From Candidatus Buchananbacteria bacterium (GTDB taxonomy: Bacteria; Patescibacteriota; Patescibacteriia; Buchananbacterales; UBA6539), in NCBI GenBank assembly GCA_013359225.1, contig JABWCG010000001.1, positions 360,021 through 424,020 of the forward strand: a stretch of 64,000 nucleotides of DNA. Reading direction: 5' to 3'. Below, in pieces: positions 5,476-28,311 of the stretch. Both the position numbers and the translations under genes were made by a program. Each line of letters opens with the position of its first letter. The first letter of the stretch is position 1. A model generated the notes under the pieces. That model saw only the letters and a list, made by a program, of their open reading frames with translations. It had not been told where the DNA came from and searched no databases.

Positions 5476-6840
5476 ATGGCTCTACAATCAATTAACCCGG
5501 CTACAGAAGAAATTTTTTCCAAAACCGAAGAATTAACCAATGAACAGATTAAAGAAAAAATTACTTTGGCGGATCATACTTTTGCCAAATGGAGGACCAC
5601 AACATTTGAAGACCGGGCAAAATTAATTAATGAGGTAGCTAAAATTTTAAGATCCGAAGCCCAGACGATTGGCGAAATTATGACCAAAGAAATGGGCAAA
5701 CCTATCAAACAAGCCATAGCCGAAGTCGAAAAGTGTGCTTGGGTTTGCGAATATTATGCTAAAGAAGCACCTAAATTTTTAACTCCGGAAAAAATTACCA
5801 CCGATGCCAGCGAAAGTCTGGTTCGATACGATCCGATCGGTATTGTGCTTGCAATTATGCCATGGAATTTCCCGTTTTGGCAGGTTATTCGTTTTGCCGC
5901 CCCGGCTCTTATGGCCGGAAATGTCGGACTGCTCAAGCATGCCTCCAATGTTCAGCTGGCGGCTAAAAAAATTGAAGAAATTTTTTTGCGTGCCGGCATT
6001 CCGGTTGGGGTATTTCAAAATCTTGCCATTAGTTCCGGAAAGGTTGAAACAATCATTCGCGATCCAAGGGTTAAGGCGGTCACTTTAACCGGCAGTGAAC
6101 ATGCTGGCGCTAAAGTTGCAGCTTTGGCCGCTTCAGAAATTAAAAAGTCTGTCTTAGAACTTGGGGGCAGCGATCCCTTTATCGTCCTGGAAGATGCGGA
6201 CATAGCAAATGCCTGTTCAGTCGCCGTTACCGCCCGCAATATCAATAACGGACAAAGCTGCATCGCCGCTAAACGGTTCATTGTGGTTTCAAGCGTTGCT
6301 GAAGAATTCAAAAAATTATTTAAAGAAAAGTTCGAAGCGTTAAAAATTGGCGACCCAATGGCTGAAACAACCGATATCGGCCCGGTTGTCAACAAGCAGG
6401 CTCTGGAAGAACTAGAAAATCAAATCAAAAAATCAGTTGCCGCCGGCGCCAAAATTCTAACTGGCGGAAAGCGGGTAGGAAACACCGGCTACTTCTTACA
6501 GCCAACCATTCTGACTGAGGTCGCACCGGGCATGCCAGCCTACCACGAAGAATTTTTTGGACCGGTTGCATCAGTTATTGTCGTTAAAGACGAGGCTGAA
6601 GCCGTTCAGGTTGCAAACGATACCCATTTTGGTTTAGGTGCCTCAATCTGGACAAGTAACATCAGCCGTGCCAAACAGCTTATTCCGCAAATTGACGCCG
6701 GCGCTGTCTTTGTTAACGGTCTGGTAAAATCCGATCCACGCTTGCCATTTGGCGGTGAAAAGCGTTCTGGTTTTGGTCGTGAATTATCACACCACGGCAT
6801 CAAAGAATTTGTTAATATAAAATCGGTCTGGATTAAATAA
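5476..6840 (+). CDS. NAD(P)-dependent aldehyde dehydrogenase family protein
   Basis: ALDH signatures: the catalytic-Cys region GQSCIAAKR and the Glu motif LELGGSDP. Confidence 0.85.
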   Translation: MALQSINPATEEIFSKTEELTNEQIKEKITLADHTFAKWRTTTFEDRAKLINEVAKILRSEAQTIGEIMTKEMGKPIKQAIAEVEKCAWVCEYYAKEAPKFLTPEKITTDASESLVRYDPIGIVLAIMPWNFPFWQVIRFAAPALMAGNVGLLKHASNVQLAAKKIEEIFLRAGIPVGVFQNLAISSGKVETIIRDPRVKAVTLTGSEHAGAKVAALAASEIKKSVLELGGSDPFIVLEDADIANACSVAVTARNINNGQSCIAAKRFIVVSSVAEEFKKLFKEKFEALKIGDPMAETTDIGPVVNKQALEELENQIKKSVAAGAKILTGGKRVGNTGYFLQPTILTEVAPGMPAYHEEFFGPVASVIVVKDEAEAVQVANDTHFGLGASIWTSNISRAKQLIPQIDAGAVFVNGLVKSDPRLPFGGEKRSGFGRELSHHGIKEFVNIKSVWIK

Positions 6841-6857: not shown

Positions 6858-7325
6858 ATGAAACTAAAAATTGGCCAAAAGGCTCCAGCTTTCTTATTGC
6901 CGGATCAAAATGGCACACTTCATAAACTTAGCCAATACGCCGGCGGCTGGCTACTGATCTATTTTTATCCCAAAGACGACACTCCCGGCTGTACTAAAGA
7001 AGCCTGCACCATTAAAGATAATTTTCCGGCATTTGGTGAGTTAAAAGCAAATGTGGTTGGCATCAGCGCCGATTCAGTCGCCAGCCATAAAAAATTTGCC
7101 GTTAAATATAAACTACCGTTTACCATTCTATCTGATGAAGAGAAAAAAATTATTACAGCTTATGGCGTCTACGGCAAAAAAAGTTTTATGGGAAAAACCT
7201 TTATGGGCATTAAAAGAACTTCATTTCTTATTGATCCTAAAGGCACAATCGTCAAAATTTATGAAAATGTCAAACCGCCACTTCATGCCAAAGAGGTAAT
7301 TGACGACCTTAAAGCCTTAAGCTAA
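6858..7325 (+). CDS. bcp: thioredoxin-dependent peroxiredoxin Bcp (PrxQ)
   Basis: The motif FYPKDDTPGCTKEAC contains the peroxidatic Cys of Bcp/PrxQ peroxiredoxins. Confidence 0.9.
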   Translation: MKLKIGQKAPAFLLPDQNGTLHKLSQYAGGWLLIYFYPKDDTPGCTKEACTIKDNFPAFGELKANVVGISADSVASHKKFAVKYKLPFTILSDEEKKIITAYGVYGKKSFMGKTFMGIKRTSFLIDPKGTIVKIYENVKPPLHAKEVIDDLKALS

Positions 7326-7338
7326 AAATTTGCCAAAT

Positions 7339-7375
7339 AATCCGCGCCGGTATTGTCGCGGATTATTTTTATTTA
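7339..7375 (+). terminator. intrinsic terminator after bcp (AATCCGCG ... CGCGGATT + T-run)
   Basis: An 8-bp GC-rich stem at 7339-7346 / 7357-7364, followed by TTATTTTTATTT. Confidence 0.7.
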
Positions 7376-7404
7376 ATTTTTTGGTATAATGAAATAACTG
7401 CCCT

Positions 7405-8940
7405 ATGATTGAAAAATTATTCAATAAATTTAGAAGAATAGTTGACTTGATTGAGAACTCCAATATCCATCTAGGGTATTTTATTTTTACCTTTTTATCA
7501 ATCATCACTATAAGAAATTTTTTAGAGCTCTTCTCTACCAAAATAGAGCTTAATACGGCTGTAGTTTTTTTTCATTTCTATATAGGATTTATTTCACTTG
7601 CCACACTATTAATTTTAACTTTTTATATTTTAACAAGAGAATCAATTGTTAAAAGTATTAAAATAGTTTTGATTGGTTTTTCGATCCTGCCACTACCACC
7701 AATAATAGATTTAATTGCTACCGGAGGGAGGGGATTCGCCATGACCTATCTGTTACCAGAATTTCATGATCATATCATATTGCGATTTTTTACATTTTTT
7801 GGACATTTTGAAGAACGGGGAGTGTCCTTAGGTATTAAAACTGAAATCTTTATTATTCTGGTGTTAACTTTTTTGTACTTTTTGGCAAAAAAACATGGCG
7901 TCTTTAGAAGTATCGCCAACGCCTTCATAGTTTATATCATAATTTTTGGTTTTTTTGCGATTCCTTTCATCTTAAAAGGAATTTTTCTATTGCTAGGCAT
8001 CAACTATGACTACTCCGTCGATGCATGGGAAATATTATCTTTCTTATTCCTGATGATGTTTTTCTGCGGAATAATTATTTTATATTTAATAGACAAAAAA
8101 AACTTTATCACTATTGCAAAAGATGCCAGATATTTGCGACTCTCATACTATTTAGGAATGTTTTTCTGCGGAATAATTGTGGCAAAATCAACGGCAACAC
8201 TTCCCATAACGGCGCAGAATTTATTTGACTTTTTATTCACTGCCATGGCAATAACCGCCGCCTGGTTGTTTTCAGTAACCACTAATAATATCGCTGATTA
8301 TCATATTGACAAAATTTCAAACAAAAATCGACCGCTAGTTCGCCGCACAATCGCTATTGAAGATTACAAAAAAATTTCCACCCTACTTTTAGTCTGGGCA
8401 ATAATATGTTCAACTGCCGTTGGACCGGACACCCTATTTCTAGTTATTTTATTTATTTCTAGTTATTTTATTTATTCCATGCCACCAATTAGGCTGAAGC
8501 GGGTTATAGTTTTATCAAAGCTGATAATTGCGTTAAATTCCTTAGTGCTGGTTTTATTAGGTTTTTTCACTATCACCAAAACTATCAAGAGTTTCCCGGG
8601 CATCTTATTTCCGACATTGCTTATTGGTATAACCATATTAGCTAATTTTATTGATATCAAAGATTACGAAGGGGATAGAAAGAATAACATTAAAACCCTA
8701 CCAACCGTCCTAGGATTAAAATTAACAAAAATAATCATTGGATTCTCCTTCGTATTTTTCTACACCATATTATATGTATTACTACCGTATTATAATTTAG
8801 GAAATTTTTGGAATTTTTTATTCATACCACTCGGATTGCTACAATTTTATTTTGTCAATCAAAAAAAATACCAAGACAGTTATATTATCGGAACCTGCGT
8901 TATAACGGTCTTCTTGTTTGCAATTTTAAATATCTTCTAA
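7405..8940 (+). CDS. polytopic membrane protein; C-terminal UbiA-family prenyltransferase domain fused to an N-terminal membrane domain
   Basis: Two Asp-rich motifs typical of UbiA-family prenyltransferases (NNIADYHIDK and DIKDYEGDRKNN) lie in the C-terminal half. The N-terminal 280 aa are hydrophobic with no recognisable motif. The gene is preceded by an extended -10 TGgTATAAT at 7381-7389. Confidence 0.5.
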   Translation: MIEKLFNKFRRIVDLIENSNIHLGYFIFTFLSIITIRNFLELFSTKIELNTAVVFFHFYIGFISLATLLILTFYILTRESIVKSIKIVLIGFSILPLPPIIDLIATGGRGFAMTYLLPEFHDHIILRFFTFFGHFEERGVSLGIKTEIFIILVLTFLYFLAKKHGVFRSIANAFIVYIIIFGFFAIPFILKGIFLLLGINYDYSVDAWEILSFLFLMMFFCGIIILYLIDKKNFITIAKDARYLRLSYYLGMFFCGIIVAKSTATLPITAQNLFDFLFTAMAITAAWLFSVTTNNIADYHIDKISNKNRPLVRRTIAIEDYKKISTLLLVWAIICSTAVGPDTLFLVILFISSYFIYSMPPIRLKRVIVLSKLIIALNSLVLVLLGFFTITKTIKSFPGILFPTLLIGITILANFIDIKDYEGDRKNNIKTLPTVLGLKLTKIIIGFSFVFFYTILYVLLPYYNLGNFWNFLFIPLGLLQFYFVNQKKYQDSYIIGTCVITVFLFAILNIF

Positions 8941-26041: not shown

Positions 26042-26308
26042 ATGAGCTTAAACAAAACCTTTAGCGCCCTTTCTGATCCAACAAGACGTAAAATTTTAGA
26101 ATTACTCAAAAAGAAAGATCTATCGGTAAATGATATTGCGCTTAATTTTTCAATATCATTACCGTCCTTATCTCATCACCTTACAATCTTAAAAAACGCT
26201 CAATTAGTCACGTCACAGCGCCGGGGACAACAAATGATTTATTCTTTAAATCTAAGCGTATTTGAAGAAATTGCCAAACAATTATACGGCTTTTTTAATA
26301 AAAAATAA
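26042..26308 (+). CDS. ArsR-family transcriptional regulator, SdpR-like
   Basis: ALSDPTRRKILELLKKKDLSVNDIALNFSISLPSLSHHLTILKNAQLV matches the ArsR-family winged HTH and the SdpR subgroup pattern. It is directly followed by an SdpI-family gene. Confidence 0.8.
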   Translation: MSLNKTFSALSDPTRRKILELLKKKDLSVNDIALNFSISLPSLSHHLTILKNAQLVTSQRRGQQMIYSLNLSVFEEIAKQLYGFFNKK

Positions 26309-26324
26309 ACTTACAATAAATAAT

Positions 26325-26987
26325 ATGAAACATCCATTAACCCCAAACATTAAAACTGAAATTATGCCAGTTATCACTCTAATTCTCCTGGCAGTTATCA
26401 GCGTCTATTTTTATAATAATTTTCCTAATCAAGTACCGACTCATTGGAATTATCGAGGAGAAGTAGATGGATATTCAGGCAAAGCCTTTGGAGCTTTTGG
26501 AATTCCGGTAATCATCGTCGTAATGTATGTAATGTTTTTACTGTTCCCATTGCTAGACCCAAAAAAAGACCGTTACCAACAATTCAAAAAGACATACCAC
26601 GTCTTCAAAACTATGATCATAGTTGTGATGGGGTTGATATATTTCTACAGCGGTTTGGCGGCTTTAGGGTATCCTGTGTCAATCAACATTGCTGTTCCAG
26701 CAACAATTGGATTATTATTCATAGTGATGGGTAACTACATGTCTAAAATAAAAAGCAACTGGTTTATTGGTATTAGGACTCCATGGACATTATCCAATGA
26801 AGAAGTTTGGAACAAAACTCATCGGGTTGGCGGAAAAATCTTTATCGCCCTAGGTGCCTTTATGATTATTGGGATATTTTTGCCAGACAAGATCTACTGG
26901 CAGGGTTTTATAGTAAGCCTTTTAGCATCGGTAGTCGGCATGATGGGGTATTCGTACTGGATATTCAAAAAGATTAATAAAAATTAA
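26325..26987 (+). CDS. SdpI/YhfL-family membrane immunity-type protein (DUF1648 + SdpI domains)
   Basis: VPTHWNYRGEVDGYSGKAFGAF matches the DUF1648 motif, and NWFIGIRTPWTLSNEEVWNKTHR matches the SdpI/YhfL signature. Six TM segments. The start is set at ATG 26325 (MKHPLTPN). Confidence 0.8.
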   Translation: MKHPLTPNIKTEIMPVITLILLAVISVYFYNNFPNQVPTHWNYRGEVDGYSGKAFGAFGIPVIIVVMYVMFLLFPLLDPKKDRYQQFKKTYHVFKTMIIVVMGLIYFYSGLAALGYPVSINIAVPATIGLLFIVMGNYMSKIKSNWFIGIRTPWTLSNEEVWNKTHRVGGKIFIALGAFMIIGIFLPDKIYWQGFIVSLLASVVGMMGYSYWIFKKINKN

Positions 26988-27082
26988 CGCTAAATAAAGT
27001 TTTACTATCTTTTAACCCCGCCTCCACACACGAGAGGAGGGGTTAAAAATTACTTTATTTATTAATCTTTTTGAAATATATA

Positions 27083-27445
27083 GCGTCGCACAATATATCT
27101 TATGCGACACTATAGGGATATATTTATCCACAAGCAAACAACTAATACAAATAGCTGCTAAAGCTATAAGATAAGCATTTAAATATAGTTTTAGACATTA
27201 ATGGACAACAAGGCCCTTAGGTAAATAAAACTTTTAAAATCAAGCAACTTACATATTACGTACTGATAAATTTTGTTTAATCAATCAAGATATGAATTTA
27301 TTAGCGCGGATGCTAATGAGAGATTAAATCATTTAAAAAGAAAGCTAGACGCCTAACCTTCTTTTTAAATGATTTAATTTGATATATTTTTCTCTAACCC
27401 CTCTTCCCTATTTGCCATTAAAAAAAGATTTATATTGTGCGACGC
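27083..27445. repeat. inverted-repeat-bounded 363-bp non-coding element (MITE-like / structured spacer)
   Basis: GCGTCGCACAATATA (27083-27097) is the exact reverse complement of TATATTGTGCGACGC (27431-27445). The flanks are TA-rich (..TATA | ATAC..). The interior is AT-rich, has no ORF, and contains a perfect 20-bp hairpin and one perfect DnaA-box 9-mer. Confidence 0.35.
27323..27378. other. perfect 20-bp stem / 16-nt loop hairpin (ATTAAATCATTTAAAAAGAA ... TTCTTTTTAAATGATTTAAT)
   Basis: Exact reverse-complement arms at 27323-27342 and 27359-27378 around the loop AGCTAGACGCCTAACC. A T-rich tract follows on the + strand. Confidence 0.6.
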
Positions 27446-27450
27446 ATACA

Positions 27451-28311
27451 CTAACTACCAAATAATTTATTGATTTCCTGATATAGCTGCTGTATTTGCC
27501 GACCGTGAAAACCAAGGCGACTCAGTAAAGTATCTTGGTTGATCAACTGTTTACATAAAACGATATTATGATGAAGTAAATCCCGAACCTGCTGATGATT
27601 CAGGCTAATCAAAACAGTAATTGGGTATAACCCCCTATTTTCAATAAGTTCCTGAAGATTATCACCCTCACTGGCGTAATCCCAGCCAATTGCTTTAATC
27701 CCAACACAGCCGCAATAAATTTTTACTTCACCAGTCACTTTGGTGTTTGTTACCAGCCAACTTTGTAGCGTGGCTTCACGCGGTTTGGCGCCCTTATTTT
27801 TTTTAATATTCCAAGCCTCTTTAATATCTAAAAACCGAGCGTACGTGTACAACGCATCCTTACTGCCGGTTTTACCACCGCCATGAGAATGAAATTTAGC
27901 CTCAATGATAGCGTGAATATTTTTTTCATACTTTTCAGCAATCACGTCCACCTCATGAGAAATACATTTACCTCTAACAATAACATTGGTTTTTGTTTCA
28001 TACCCTTGTTCCTCCAATAAAGCCGCAAAATACTTTTCAAACGGAAAACCATCGGGGCCAAGACGCATAATTGCCTTTTTAAGATTATAACGAGCCGCAT
28101 AACTCTTGTCCTCTGATTTTAAAAGATCAAAAGCCAACCGATGAATCTGGGCCGTTGTAGTGCCTGGCTTTATTTTTGGTCTTATCTGGCTGATTACTCT
28201 TTTTGCTACCCCGCTAGCCACACCAGAAGACATCATTGATTTCTTTAATTTTATAATTGAAAAAATTTCTTTTTCTCCACTTGCTTTTTTAATTAAAATT
28301 TTTTTTGCCAT
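27451..28311 (-). CDS. ATP-cone domain protein fused to Mrr-like PD-(D/E)xK restriction-endonuclease-fold nuclease domain
   Basis: The N-terminal 90 aa (KILIKKASGEKEIFSIIKLKKSM...AARYNLKKAIMRL) resemble an NrdR/RNR ATP-cone. The central region (FEKYFAALLEEQGYE...HEVDVIAEK...IIEAKF) matches the Mrr_cat D...(D/E)xK core. The last 100 aa are unassigned. The start is set at ATG 28311 (MAKKIL), 10 nt after the ftsQ stop. Confidence 0.6.
   Translation of the reverse strand: MAKKILIKKASGEKEIFSIIKLKKSMMSSGVASGVAKRVISQIRPKIKPGTTTAQIHRLAFDLLKSEDKSYAARYNLKKAIMRLGPDGFPFEKYFAALLEEQGYETKTNVIVRGKCISHEVDVIAEKYEKNIHAIIEAKFHSHGGGKTGSKDALYTYARFLDIKEAWNIKKNKGAKPREATLQSWLVTNTKVTGEVKIYCGCVGIKAIGWDYASEGDNLQELIENRGLYPITVLISLNHQQVRDLLHHNIVLCKQLINQDTLLSRLGFHGRQIQQLYQEINKLFGS

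Follow-up and report, generated by a model that had tools for sequence, protein, structure and literature searches.

A probable dif region between two converging gene blocks of a Candidatus Buchananbacteria chromosome

We analyzed a stretch of 64,000 nucleotides from a Candidatus Buchananbacteria genome (contig JABWCG010000001.1, hereafter the window) and, within it, the intergenic spacer at positions 26988-27450, which lies between a gene for an SdpI-type membrane protein and a gene for a nuclease. We are confident, although short of certain, that this spacer is best explained as the dif region of the chromosome, that is, the site of Xer recombination, accompanied by an extra half-site and two terminator hairpins. 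A dif site is recognized (PMC3025954, PMC9765430) as a sequence of some 28-30 bp that is poor in G+C, has dyad symmetry about a short centre and occurs once; it lies between genes that vary from genome to genome, close to the terminus. The candidate described here is a 28-bp dyad of the form 11-6-11 that occurs as a single copy in the window and in the matches listed from other genomes, is intergenic with varying flanks, and stands where genes and a polar motif converge. The spacer had been singled out in a sequence-only reading, which listed its inverted repeats and hairpins and considered a mobile element, a recombination site or a small RNA. All of the listed features were present at their coordinates, with a symmetry far above chance, and the motifs are conserved in relatives and throughout the phylum. 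Among the three explanations, the recombination site was retained, and the mobile element and the small RNA were abandoned.

The 28-bp palindrome and its conservation in Patescibacteria

The exactness of the 15-bp inverted repeats was confirmed, with GCGTCGCACAATATA at 27083-27097 and its reverse complement at 27431-27445. A third, degenerate copy of the 15-mer, which had been overlooked, was found on the minus strand at 27096-27110, and together with the left repeat it forms a 28-bp palindrome at 27083-27110. Read directly on the minus strand and by a scan for 11-6-11 palindromes, this dif-like core site consists of the left arm GTGTCGCATAA (27110-27100), the centre GATATA (27099-27094) and the right arm TTGTGCGACGC (27093-27083). 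The sequence GTCGCA..TGCGAC at 27085-27108 had been regarded as a local hairpin; the sequence is there, but it belongs, with the left 15-mer, to the 28-bp palindrome. The 28-mer occurs once within the window.

The query GTCGNNTAANNNNTATTGTGCGAC was scanned against a collection containing one genome per species (185,579 species). At least 120 stretches were listed, and all counts given below for 120, 112 or 75 loci or for 33 genomes are among these matches; single-copy status likewise refers to the window and the listed stretches, not to whole genomes. The 24-bp core was present in at least 120 stretches, no two of them from the same assembly; almost all are from Patescibacteria, including Uhr-, Magasanik-, Falkow-, Buchanan-, Komeili- and Nomurabacteria, Parcubacteria and Saccharibacteria. 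Each stretch carried one copy of the site, and the one exception was a duplicate across a scaffold N-gap. A position weight table gave the 28-bp consensus G(T/C)GTCG(T/C)ATAA-GATATA-TTGTGCGAC(A/G)C, in which the positions left free in the scan were strongly non-random; at the free positions of the GATATA centre, G, T and A reached 83%, 95% and 81%, respectively. Conservation extended two bases past the 24-bp core on each side and stopped at 28 bp exactly.

Next to the extent of conservation, the pattern of substitutions was informative. The outer pair of arm bases covaries between G-C and A-T, with both arms changing together. Outside the 28 bp, pairing or covariation was at most slightly above the permutation control, and a hairpin longer than the site, of either RNA or DNA, was rejected for this reason; the covariance analysis that had been suggested for the spacer thus yielded no meaningful pairing beyond the site itself. 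Therefore, the covariation of the arms, without excess pairing outside them, points to a symmetric protein site and not to an RNA stem. Furthermore, the inner arm bases agree with those of canonical dif (ATAA-N6-TT.TG). By analogy with known Xer systems, each of the two 11-bp arms would be bound by one subunit of Xer tyrosine recombinase, and strands would be exchanged at the borders of the 6-bp centre; a chromosome dimer would in this way be resolved into two monomers when the cell divides.

The genes beside the site vary from genome to genome: an xer-like gene was found in 5 of 120 fetched loci (up to 8 kb each), and the nuclease gene of the window in none of them. An NrdR box, considered because the neighbouring gene encodes an ATP-cone, was rejected since its symmetry centre would be offset and the site occurs without the nuclease gene in all 120 genomes; an operator for the ArsR/SdpI genes or for the nuclease was ruled out on the same grounds.

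Some records that carry the site bear unexpected titles. Many third-party-annotation metagenome-assembled genomes (MAGs) titled "uncultured Gammaproteobacteria" contain the Patescibacteria site, and these titles are probably wrong; further suspect titles are Bdellovibrionales, Methanosarcinales, Sediminibacterium and Nanoarchaeia. The few matches outside the phylum, in Cohnella (L091) and Chloroflexota (L154), have central bases that deviate from the consensus, and their loci also contain a tyrosine recombinase gene, 131 bp away from the site in the former and about 4 kb away in the latter.

Convergence on the site and the accessory arm

Up to 27 kb in the window, nearly every gene is encoded on the plus strand; from there on, the minus strand carries all of them, such that the spacer divides two converging blocks, ArsR-SdpI (ending at 26987) and serS-ddl-ftsQ-nuclease (ending at 27451). 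The same arrangement was seen elsewhere; of 75 loci, 58 had convergent genes at the site and 4 had divergent ones, and 451 complete open reading frames (ORFs) of at least 250 aa were oriented toward the site, against 39 oriented away. The spacers that carry the site had a median length of 480 bp (interquartile range 323-690), compared with a median of 41 bp for the remaining gaps in those loci. The 463-bp spacer of the window is therefore the normal setting of the site. It is also free of genes, as the sequence-only reading had stated: no ORF of at least 60 aa was found in 26988-27450, only mechanical ones of 25-41 aa.

A screen of k-mers for strand polarity was conducted around the sites. AGGGGAG pointed toward rather than away from the site in a ratio of 64:0 within 600 bp and 137:6 at 600-4000 bp, and related words behaved similarly (AGGGGAT 50:3, GGGGATA 36:0, AGGGAAG 52:5). 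Even in long genes oriented away from the site, AGGGGA still pointed toward it, by 20:2 in those of at least 250 aa and 15:1 in those of at least 350 aa; the polarity therefore belongs to the chromosome arm rather than to the coding strand. Within the window, six AGGGGA motifs on the plus strand and one on the minus strand lie left of 27.1 kb, and none on the plus and six on the minus strand lie right of it, so that the flip falls exactly at 27.1 kb.

Two purine-rich patches within the spacer are directed at the site. The first, AGGGAAGAGGGGTTAGAG at 27392-27409 on the minus strand, comes from the nuclease side, falls in the AGGGGA/GGGAAG polar class, is kept in relatives as GGGAAGAGG or GGGGAGAGG, and follows the accessory arm toward the site in most genomes. 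The second, GAGAGGAGGGGTT at 27032-27044 on the plus strand, comes from the sdpI side and is also the 3' half of the sdpI terminator stem. Downstream of the site, at a distance of 15-90 nt, 67 of 112 genomes have a motif of CTCCCCT/CTCCTC type. These AGGGGA-type motifs are most likely polar guides that would steer an FtsK/SpoIIIE-type pump to the site, similar to the FtsK-orienting polar sequences (KOPS, GGGNAGGG) and SpoIIIE recognition sequences (SRS, GAGAAGGG). Like those, AGGGGA(G/T) is G-rich, 96-100% strand-polar, aimed at the site from both sides whatever the gene strand, and denser near the site. Unlike them, it has a different sequence and one copy often lies 15-90 nt from the site; a Chi-like role is also possible for it.

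The position of the site on a chromosome could be read from OZ246404.1, the only complete chromosome among the matches listed (1,136,458 bp). Its site lies at about 560,970, or 49.4% of the length, and this midpoint position fits a terminus, provided that the record begins at the origin.

Next to the palindrome, 13 nt from its left arm, lies TTATCCACA at 27124-27132 (TGTGGATAA on the minus strand), which was correctly described as a perfect DnaA-box 9-mer and is kept 13-15 nt from the site in four close lineages (the window, L001, L003 and L006). Its identity as a DnaA box is doubtful, however, because loci L011 and L014 have in its place TGGGGATAA, which fits the phylum-wide polar motif AGGGGATA; the 9-mer may accordingly be a variant of that motif. 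Perfect DnaA boxes numbered 10 near the 120 sites, and thus are not a general feature of the site. The possibility that TGTGGATAA is what remains of the end of an older nuclease gene (the genes of L007 and L008 end in ...TGT GGA TAA) was rejected, as no upstream similarity was found.

The right 15-bp repeat was found to be an isolated accessory arm (27431-27445, minus strand, GCGTCGCACAATATA), equal to the reverse complement of the right arm of the dif-like site plus TATA, and no second arm adjoins it. It had been said to touch the stop codon of the nuclease gene; in fact, it ends 5 nt short of that codon (27451-27453). A single arm likewise stands right after the nuclease stop in the relatives L001, L003 and L006. 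Throughout the phylum, 71 of 120 genomes have a single arm with the consensus TGTGTCG[T/C]A[A/C]AATAT at a distance of 100-700 bp (mostly 179-640 bp) from the site, mostly on the left-arm side and in either orientation, and none of these arms has a partner arm beside it. The density of such arms is about 5-10 times the background. The matches numbered 78, against about 2 expected by a rough estimate, and about six of them may fall within a conserved coding region. Six distant genomes (L095, L114, L122, L128, L140 and L162) have, 530-640 bp left of the site, TGTGGATAA followed after 17-19 nt by TTTTACGAC, a pair that lies inside an apparent coding region (...LFAE.V.VDK...); there, the "accessory arm" and "DnaA box" may be a conserved gene end.

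The accessory arm probably holds one recombinase subunit beside dif. Two papers (PMC11840125, PMC11894783), citing Karaboja et al. 2021, describe XDS, which are XerD-binding dif-like half-sites that unload Smc-ScpAB in the terminus of B. subtilis. These are the nearest precedent for what the arm might do, as 27431-27445 is likewise an isolated, partnerless copy of a dif arm in the terminus region beside dif. In B. subtilis, several XDS are spread over a large terminus region, whereas the accessory arm is single (rarely two) and lies within about 0.7 kb of dif.

Evidence against a dif site and alternative explanations

Several observations weigh against the assignment to dif. No tyrosine recombinase gene lies within the 64-kb window, and the Xer protein of a relative, used as query, gave no match from the window's own contig of 601,517 bp among its best 120 matches. 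Similarity to canonical dif is low, at 17-18 of 28 positions for E. coli, 15-17 of 28 for B. subtilis and 12-13 of 28 for Frankia, and it is not discriminating, since chance matches in the window score 18-20 of 28; the site agrees at 11 of the 16 positions common to the E. coli, B. subtilis and Frankia sites, a figure to be read beside those chance matches. Sister lineages bear a different palindrome at the same junction, and no copy of the 28-bp site was found in their fetched flanks. Finally, plus-strand GC skew at third codon positions (GC3) stays near -0.2 to the left and to the right of the site, over the whole 64 kb and for any gene orientation; four relatives (L001, L003, L206 and L207) likewise show no GC3 sign change at the junction, and the GC3 shift in 33 other genomes is weak (left +0.08, right -0.01).

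The skew result bears on position more than on identity. It has been reported that dif works wherever KOPS converge, even when it is displaced or outside the termination region (PMC3025954); therefore, the missing GC3 switch weakens the claim of a terminus here more than the claim of a dif site. A switch in bulk GC skew, which looked terminus-like in 51 of 75 loci, was discarded as support, since by the third-codon analysis it mostly reflects how the genes are oriented. On the sdpI side, about 27 kb of genes lie on the C-rich strand, though both the AGGGGA polarity and the direction of the genes reverse at the junction, and this mismatch leaves a small puzzle over the replication end point in Buchananbacteria.

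Recombinase genes were found at the same junction in related genomes. The two recombinases seen beside the nuclease gene in sister lineages are both of the XerC/D family, and in other Buchananbacteria the ftsQ-(nuclease)/sdpI junction bears one or two genes of this family. One of these junction recombinases showed 68-84% identity across the best 119 other clusters, which, where their source was named, came from Buchanan-, Magasanik- and Gottesmanbacteria and Microgenomates; as judged from sequence, this high conservation fits a highly conserved target site. The palindrome of the sister lineages has the form 12-6-12, reads AACTGAGTATAA-N6-TTACACTCAGTT followed by CCCCTC, and lies mostly about 30 nt upstream of an XerC/D-family gene (L005, 1808-1840; L007, 4399-4428; L013, 4431-4460; L207, 5967-5996). 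Its arm, ACTGAGTATAA, was designated type A, and the arm of the site in the window, GTGTCGCATAA, type B. The sister palindrome could be an alternative dif/xer module or an operator of the xer gene. In L005, an ORF of LAGLIDADG type (LAGFIDGEG) lies at about 1862-2325, between the palindrome and the xer gene.

Closer relatives, whose nuclease is 56-70% identical, share the synteny of the window and have longer spacers of 815-907 bp. An alignment of four orthologous spacers showed conservation in short blocks only, namely, the arm (T/C)GTCG(C/T)A(C/A)AATAT after the nuclease stop, GGGAAGAGG, TGTGGATAA and the palindrome, whose block reads GTGTCG..TAA....TATTGTGCGAC plus flank. With the same motifs kept around a diverged interior, a recent insertion is ruled out.

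These data bear directly on the mobile element that had been proposed, a non-autonomous transposon of the IS630/Tc1 type (a miniature inverted-repeat transposable element) bounded by the 15-bp repeats. The exact repeats, which are 333 bp apart, and an A+T-rich interior without ORF suit it, but the arrangement is inherited and old: the orthologous spacers of L001, L003 and L006 keep both motifs, and no empty site was found in relatives. No further copy of the repeat, the interior, the hairpin arm or the 18-mer was found in the 64-kb window. The TA-rich flanks had been taken as a sign of TA targeting; there is no TA target duplication, since the flanks read ...ATATA/GCGTCGC on the left and GCGACGC/ATACAC on the right, where a matching TA is lacking. 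Moreover, the left repeat is half of a phylum-wide single-copy site, and the right repeat is the single-arm motif that stands beside this site in either orientation and at variable distance. We thus exclude the transposon. A replication origin, or a cluster of boxes that titrates DnaA, is excluded still more firmly. It would account for the A+T-rich DNA and for the perfect 9-mer kept in four close lineages, but that box is the only perfect one, gives way to TGGGGATAA in two lineages and is no general feature of the site; the genes converge and do not diverge, the polar motif converges as well, and there is no skew switch of the origin type.

The structured RNA that had been offered as another explanation is unlikely, and only marginally better placed than the transposon. 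The hairpins and the palindrome would on this account be RNA structures, and their predicted stability is indeed very high; the palindrome also folds better as minus-strand RNA, where G-U pairs take the place of C-A mismatches (-21.6 vs -12.9 kcal/mol). However, Rfam 15 gave no match at gathering score in the whole window or in five related loci, and the spacer searched at E of 10 or less gave only sub-threshold hairpin look-alikes (microRNA models). A search for tRNA and tmRNA found none, and a promoter scan returned fewer sites than shuffled sequence. The 20-bp hairpin is not conserved in sequence, and the site is conserved as an exact DNA sequence amid unrelated neighbours.

Two further explanations keep the palindrome as a protein site; both are improbable, although less so than an RNA. 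The better of them holds that it is a terminus-specific site without recombination, for stalling or unloading of SMC (structural maintenance of chromosomes) complexes or for fork arrest, with the extra arm as a second binding site. A single copy where genes and polar motif converge would be expected of such a site, no xer gene lies in the window, and there are precedents both for dif-like half-sites (XDS) in SMC unloading and for Xer-independent SMC boundaries at the DNA surrounding dif (PMC11840125). Nevertheless, a simple dimer operator needs no conserved centre, and the 11-6-11 form with its conserved 6-bp centre is the core geometry of tyrosine recombinases; the inner arm bases match dif, and XerC/D-family genes stand at the same junction in sister lineages. 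According to the other explanation, which we consider slightly less probable again, the segment between the arms is the relic of a Xer-integrated element (IMEX) with dif and a degenerate dif, or the site of another integrase or invertase. The non-coding DNA, 320 bp in length, does lie between a full site and a half site, the accessory arm faces either way depending on the genome, and IMEXs leave dif and a modified dif at their ends (PMC9765430). Against this, the arrangement is phylum-wide and vertically conserved in relatives, the accessory motif is never two-armed among the matches listed, and the interior is geneless, holding only terminators and polar motifs. Thus, the conserved 6-bp centre and the single-armed accessory motif are fitted less well by either of these than by a dif site.

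Known systems, probable terminators and flanking genes

The dif site proposed here belongs to a known kind, and its sequence is divergent and highly symmetric. With the dif/XerC-XerD systems of E. coli and B. subtilis it shares the length of 28 bp, the 11-bp arms, the 6-bp A+T-rich centre and the inner bases, as well as a single intergenic copy with changing neighbours, convergence of genes and of a G-rich motif, and XerC/D-family genes in the clade. It differs in the outer arm bases, in the conserved extra arm about 180-640 bp away and in the lack of a GC3 switch in this lineage. In addition, canonical dif has distinct XerC and XerD arms, whereas the arms here are nearly identical and both resemble the XerC arm GGTGCGCATAA. 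Among the single-recombinase systems (XerS/difSL, XerH/difH, XerL/dif of Legionella and XerA/dif of archaea), Legionella and archaeal dif likewise have highly symmetric arms, and the palindrome about 30 nt upstream of xer in sister Buchananbacteria resembles the XerS and XerH modules (PMC9765430). In contrast to those modules, most of the 120 genomes listed have no xer gene near the site, and some relatives have two different XerC/D-family genes. A further comparison is offered by Thermococcus kodakarensis, in which dif lies in a 1.9-kb spacer that separates convergent genes and forms an SMC boundary, and is surrounded by DNA with a function of its own (PMC11840125). Both spacers are unusually long, free of genes and set between convergent genes, with surrounding DNA that appears functional; the other is archaeal, is 1.9 kb long and has no defined accessory motif.

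Literature searches that combined dif with Patescibacteria or the candidate phyla radiation (CPR), or used the site sequence in either orientation, found no dif site or polar guide sequence for the phylum, and the extra arm and the candidate polar motif appear undescribed for it. We know of no report from other phyla of a conserved single extra arm and a near-fixed polar motif beside dif. Tentatively, and with the odds against the whole combination, we propose that Patescibacteria may share a compact "terminus module" undescribed in other bacteria. It would comprise the symmetric 28-bp dif, the AGGGGA-type motif converging at a nearly fixed distance, a spacer of about 0.5 kb and, as a working part, the extra arm about 180-640 bp away, whose role might be XDS-like unloading of SMC or a topological or regulatory partnership with dif. 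The Buchananbacteria version of the module would, in addition, be independent of the GC-skew switch. A 24-28-bp single-copy marker present in many CPR classes would flag the terminus region in fragmentary MAGs, would aid assembly checks and replication-rate estimates, and, in those few Saccharibacteria that can be cultured, would offer genetics a target. How very small genomes organise chromosome segregation could be learned from the extra arm and the near-fixed motif.

Two hairpins in the spacer are most simply viewed as the terminators of the two converging transcription units. The long A+T-rich hairpin at 27323-27378 (minus strand) was flagged as terminator-like in a scan, and the perfect 20-bp stem reported for it (27323-27342 with 27359-27378) was verified; it extends to arms of 26 nt with 92% complementarity and a loop of 4 nt, and it folded as minus-strand RNA to -30.3 kcal/mol (z = -7.9). 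Its T tract on the minus strand is weak (TTTAATCTCT). The hairpin does not align among relatives, which have unrelated, clearer hairpins with T runs at the same relative place, and it is on this account a terminator-like stem conserved in position but not in sequence, which most likely serves the ftsQ-nuclease unit as its intrinsic terminator and may be bidirectional. The G+C-rich, terminator-like hairpin downstream of sdpI, previously described as degenerate and placed at 27011-27046, was located at 27010-27048 on the plus strand (-21.0 kcal/mol, z = -5.5).

On the left, the spacer is bordered by the gene for the SdpI/DUF1648 membrane protein (26262-26987, plus strand), the final gene of the plus-strand block according to Pfam and the gene map, with the ArsR-family regulator upstream of it (26042-26308, plus strand). 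On the right lies the nuclease gene (27451-28311, minus strand), for which Pfam gave an ATP-cone, an Mrr-like nuclease and an AF1548-like C-terminal domain; it is the final gene of the minus-strand block, with serS, ddl and ftsQ upstream, and its product is a 100% match to a 286-aa Candidatus Buchananbacteria protein encoded on a 601,517-bp contig. In the relatives L001 (about 5943-6307) and L003 (about 7269-7622), an uncalled hydrophobic ORF of about 54-58 aa lies between the dif-like site and sdpI. It ends in ...NQAS.NLP(H/S), is preceded by a good promoter match (TTGACT/TTGACA-17-TATATT/TAAAGT) and has a leader of about 150-170 nt with no Rfam match; this unit as a whole is lacking from the window.

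On the same side of the window, an imperfect palindrome of 112 nt (26964-27075), which had been overlooked, has the 27010-27048 hairpin as its core and folded to -39.6 kcal/mol (z = -7.5). Its outer arms of 18 nt are exact, with 26964-26981 encoding the last SdpI residues and 27058-27075 as the partner, and the palindrome is without counterpart in relatives. The palindrome looks like an inverted duplication of the 3' end of sdpI.

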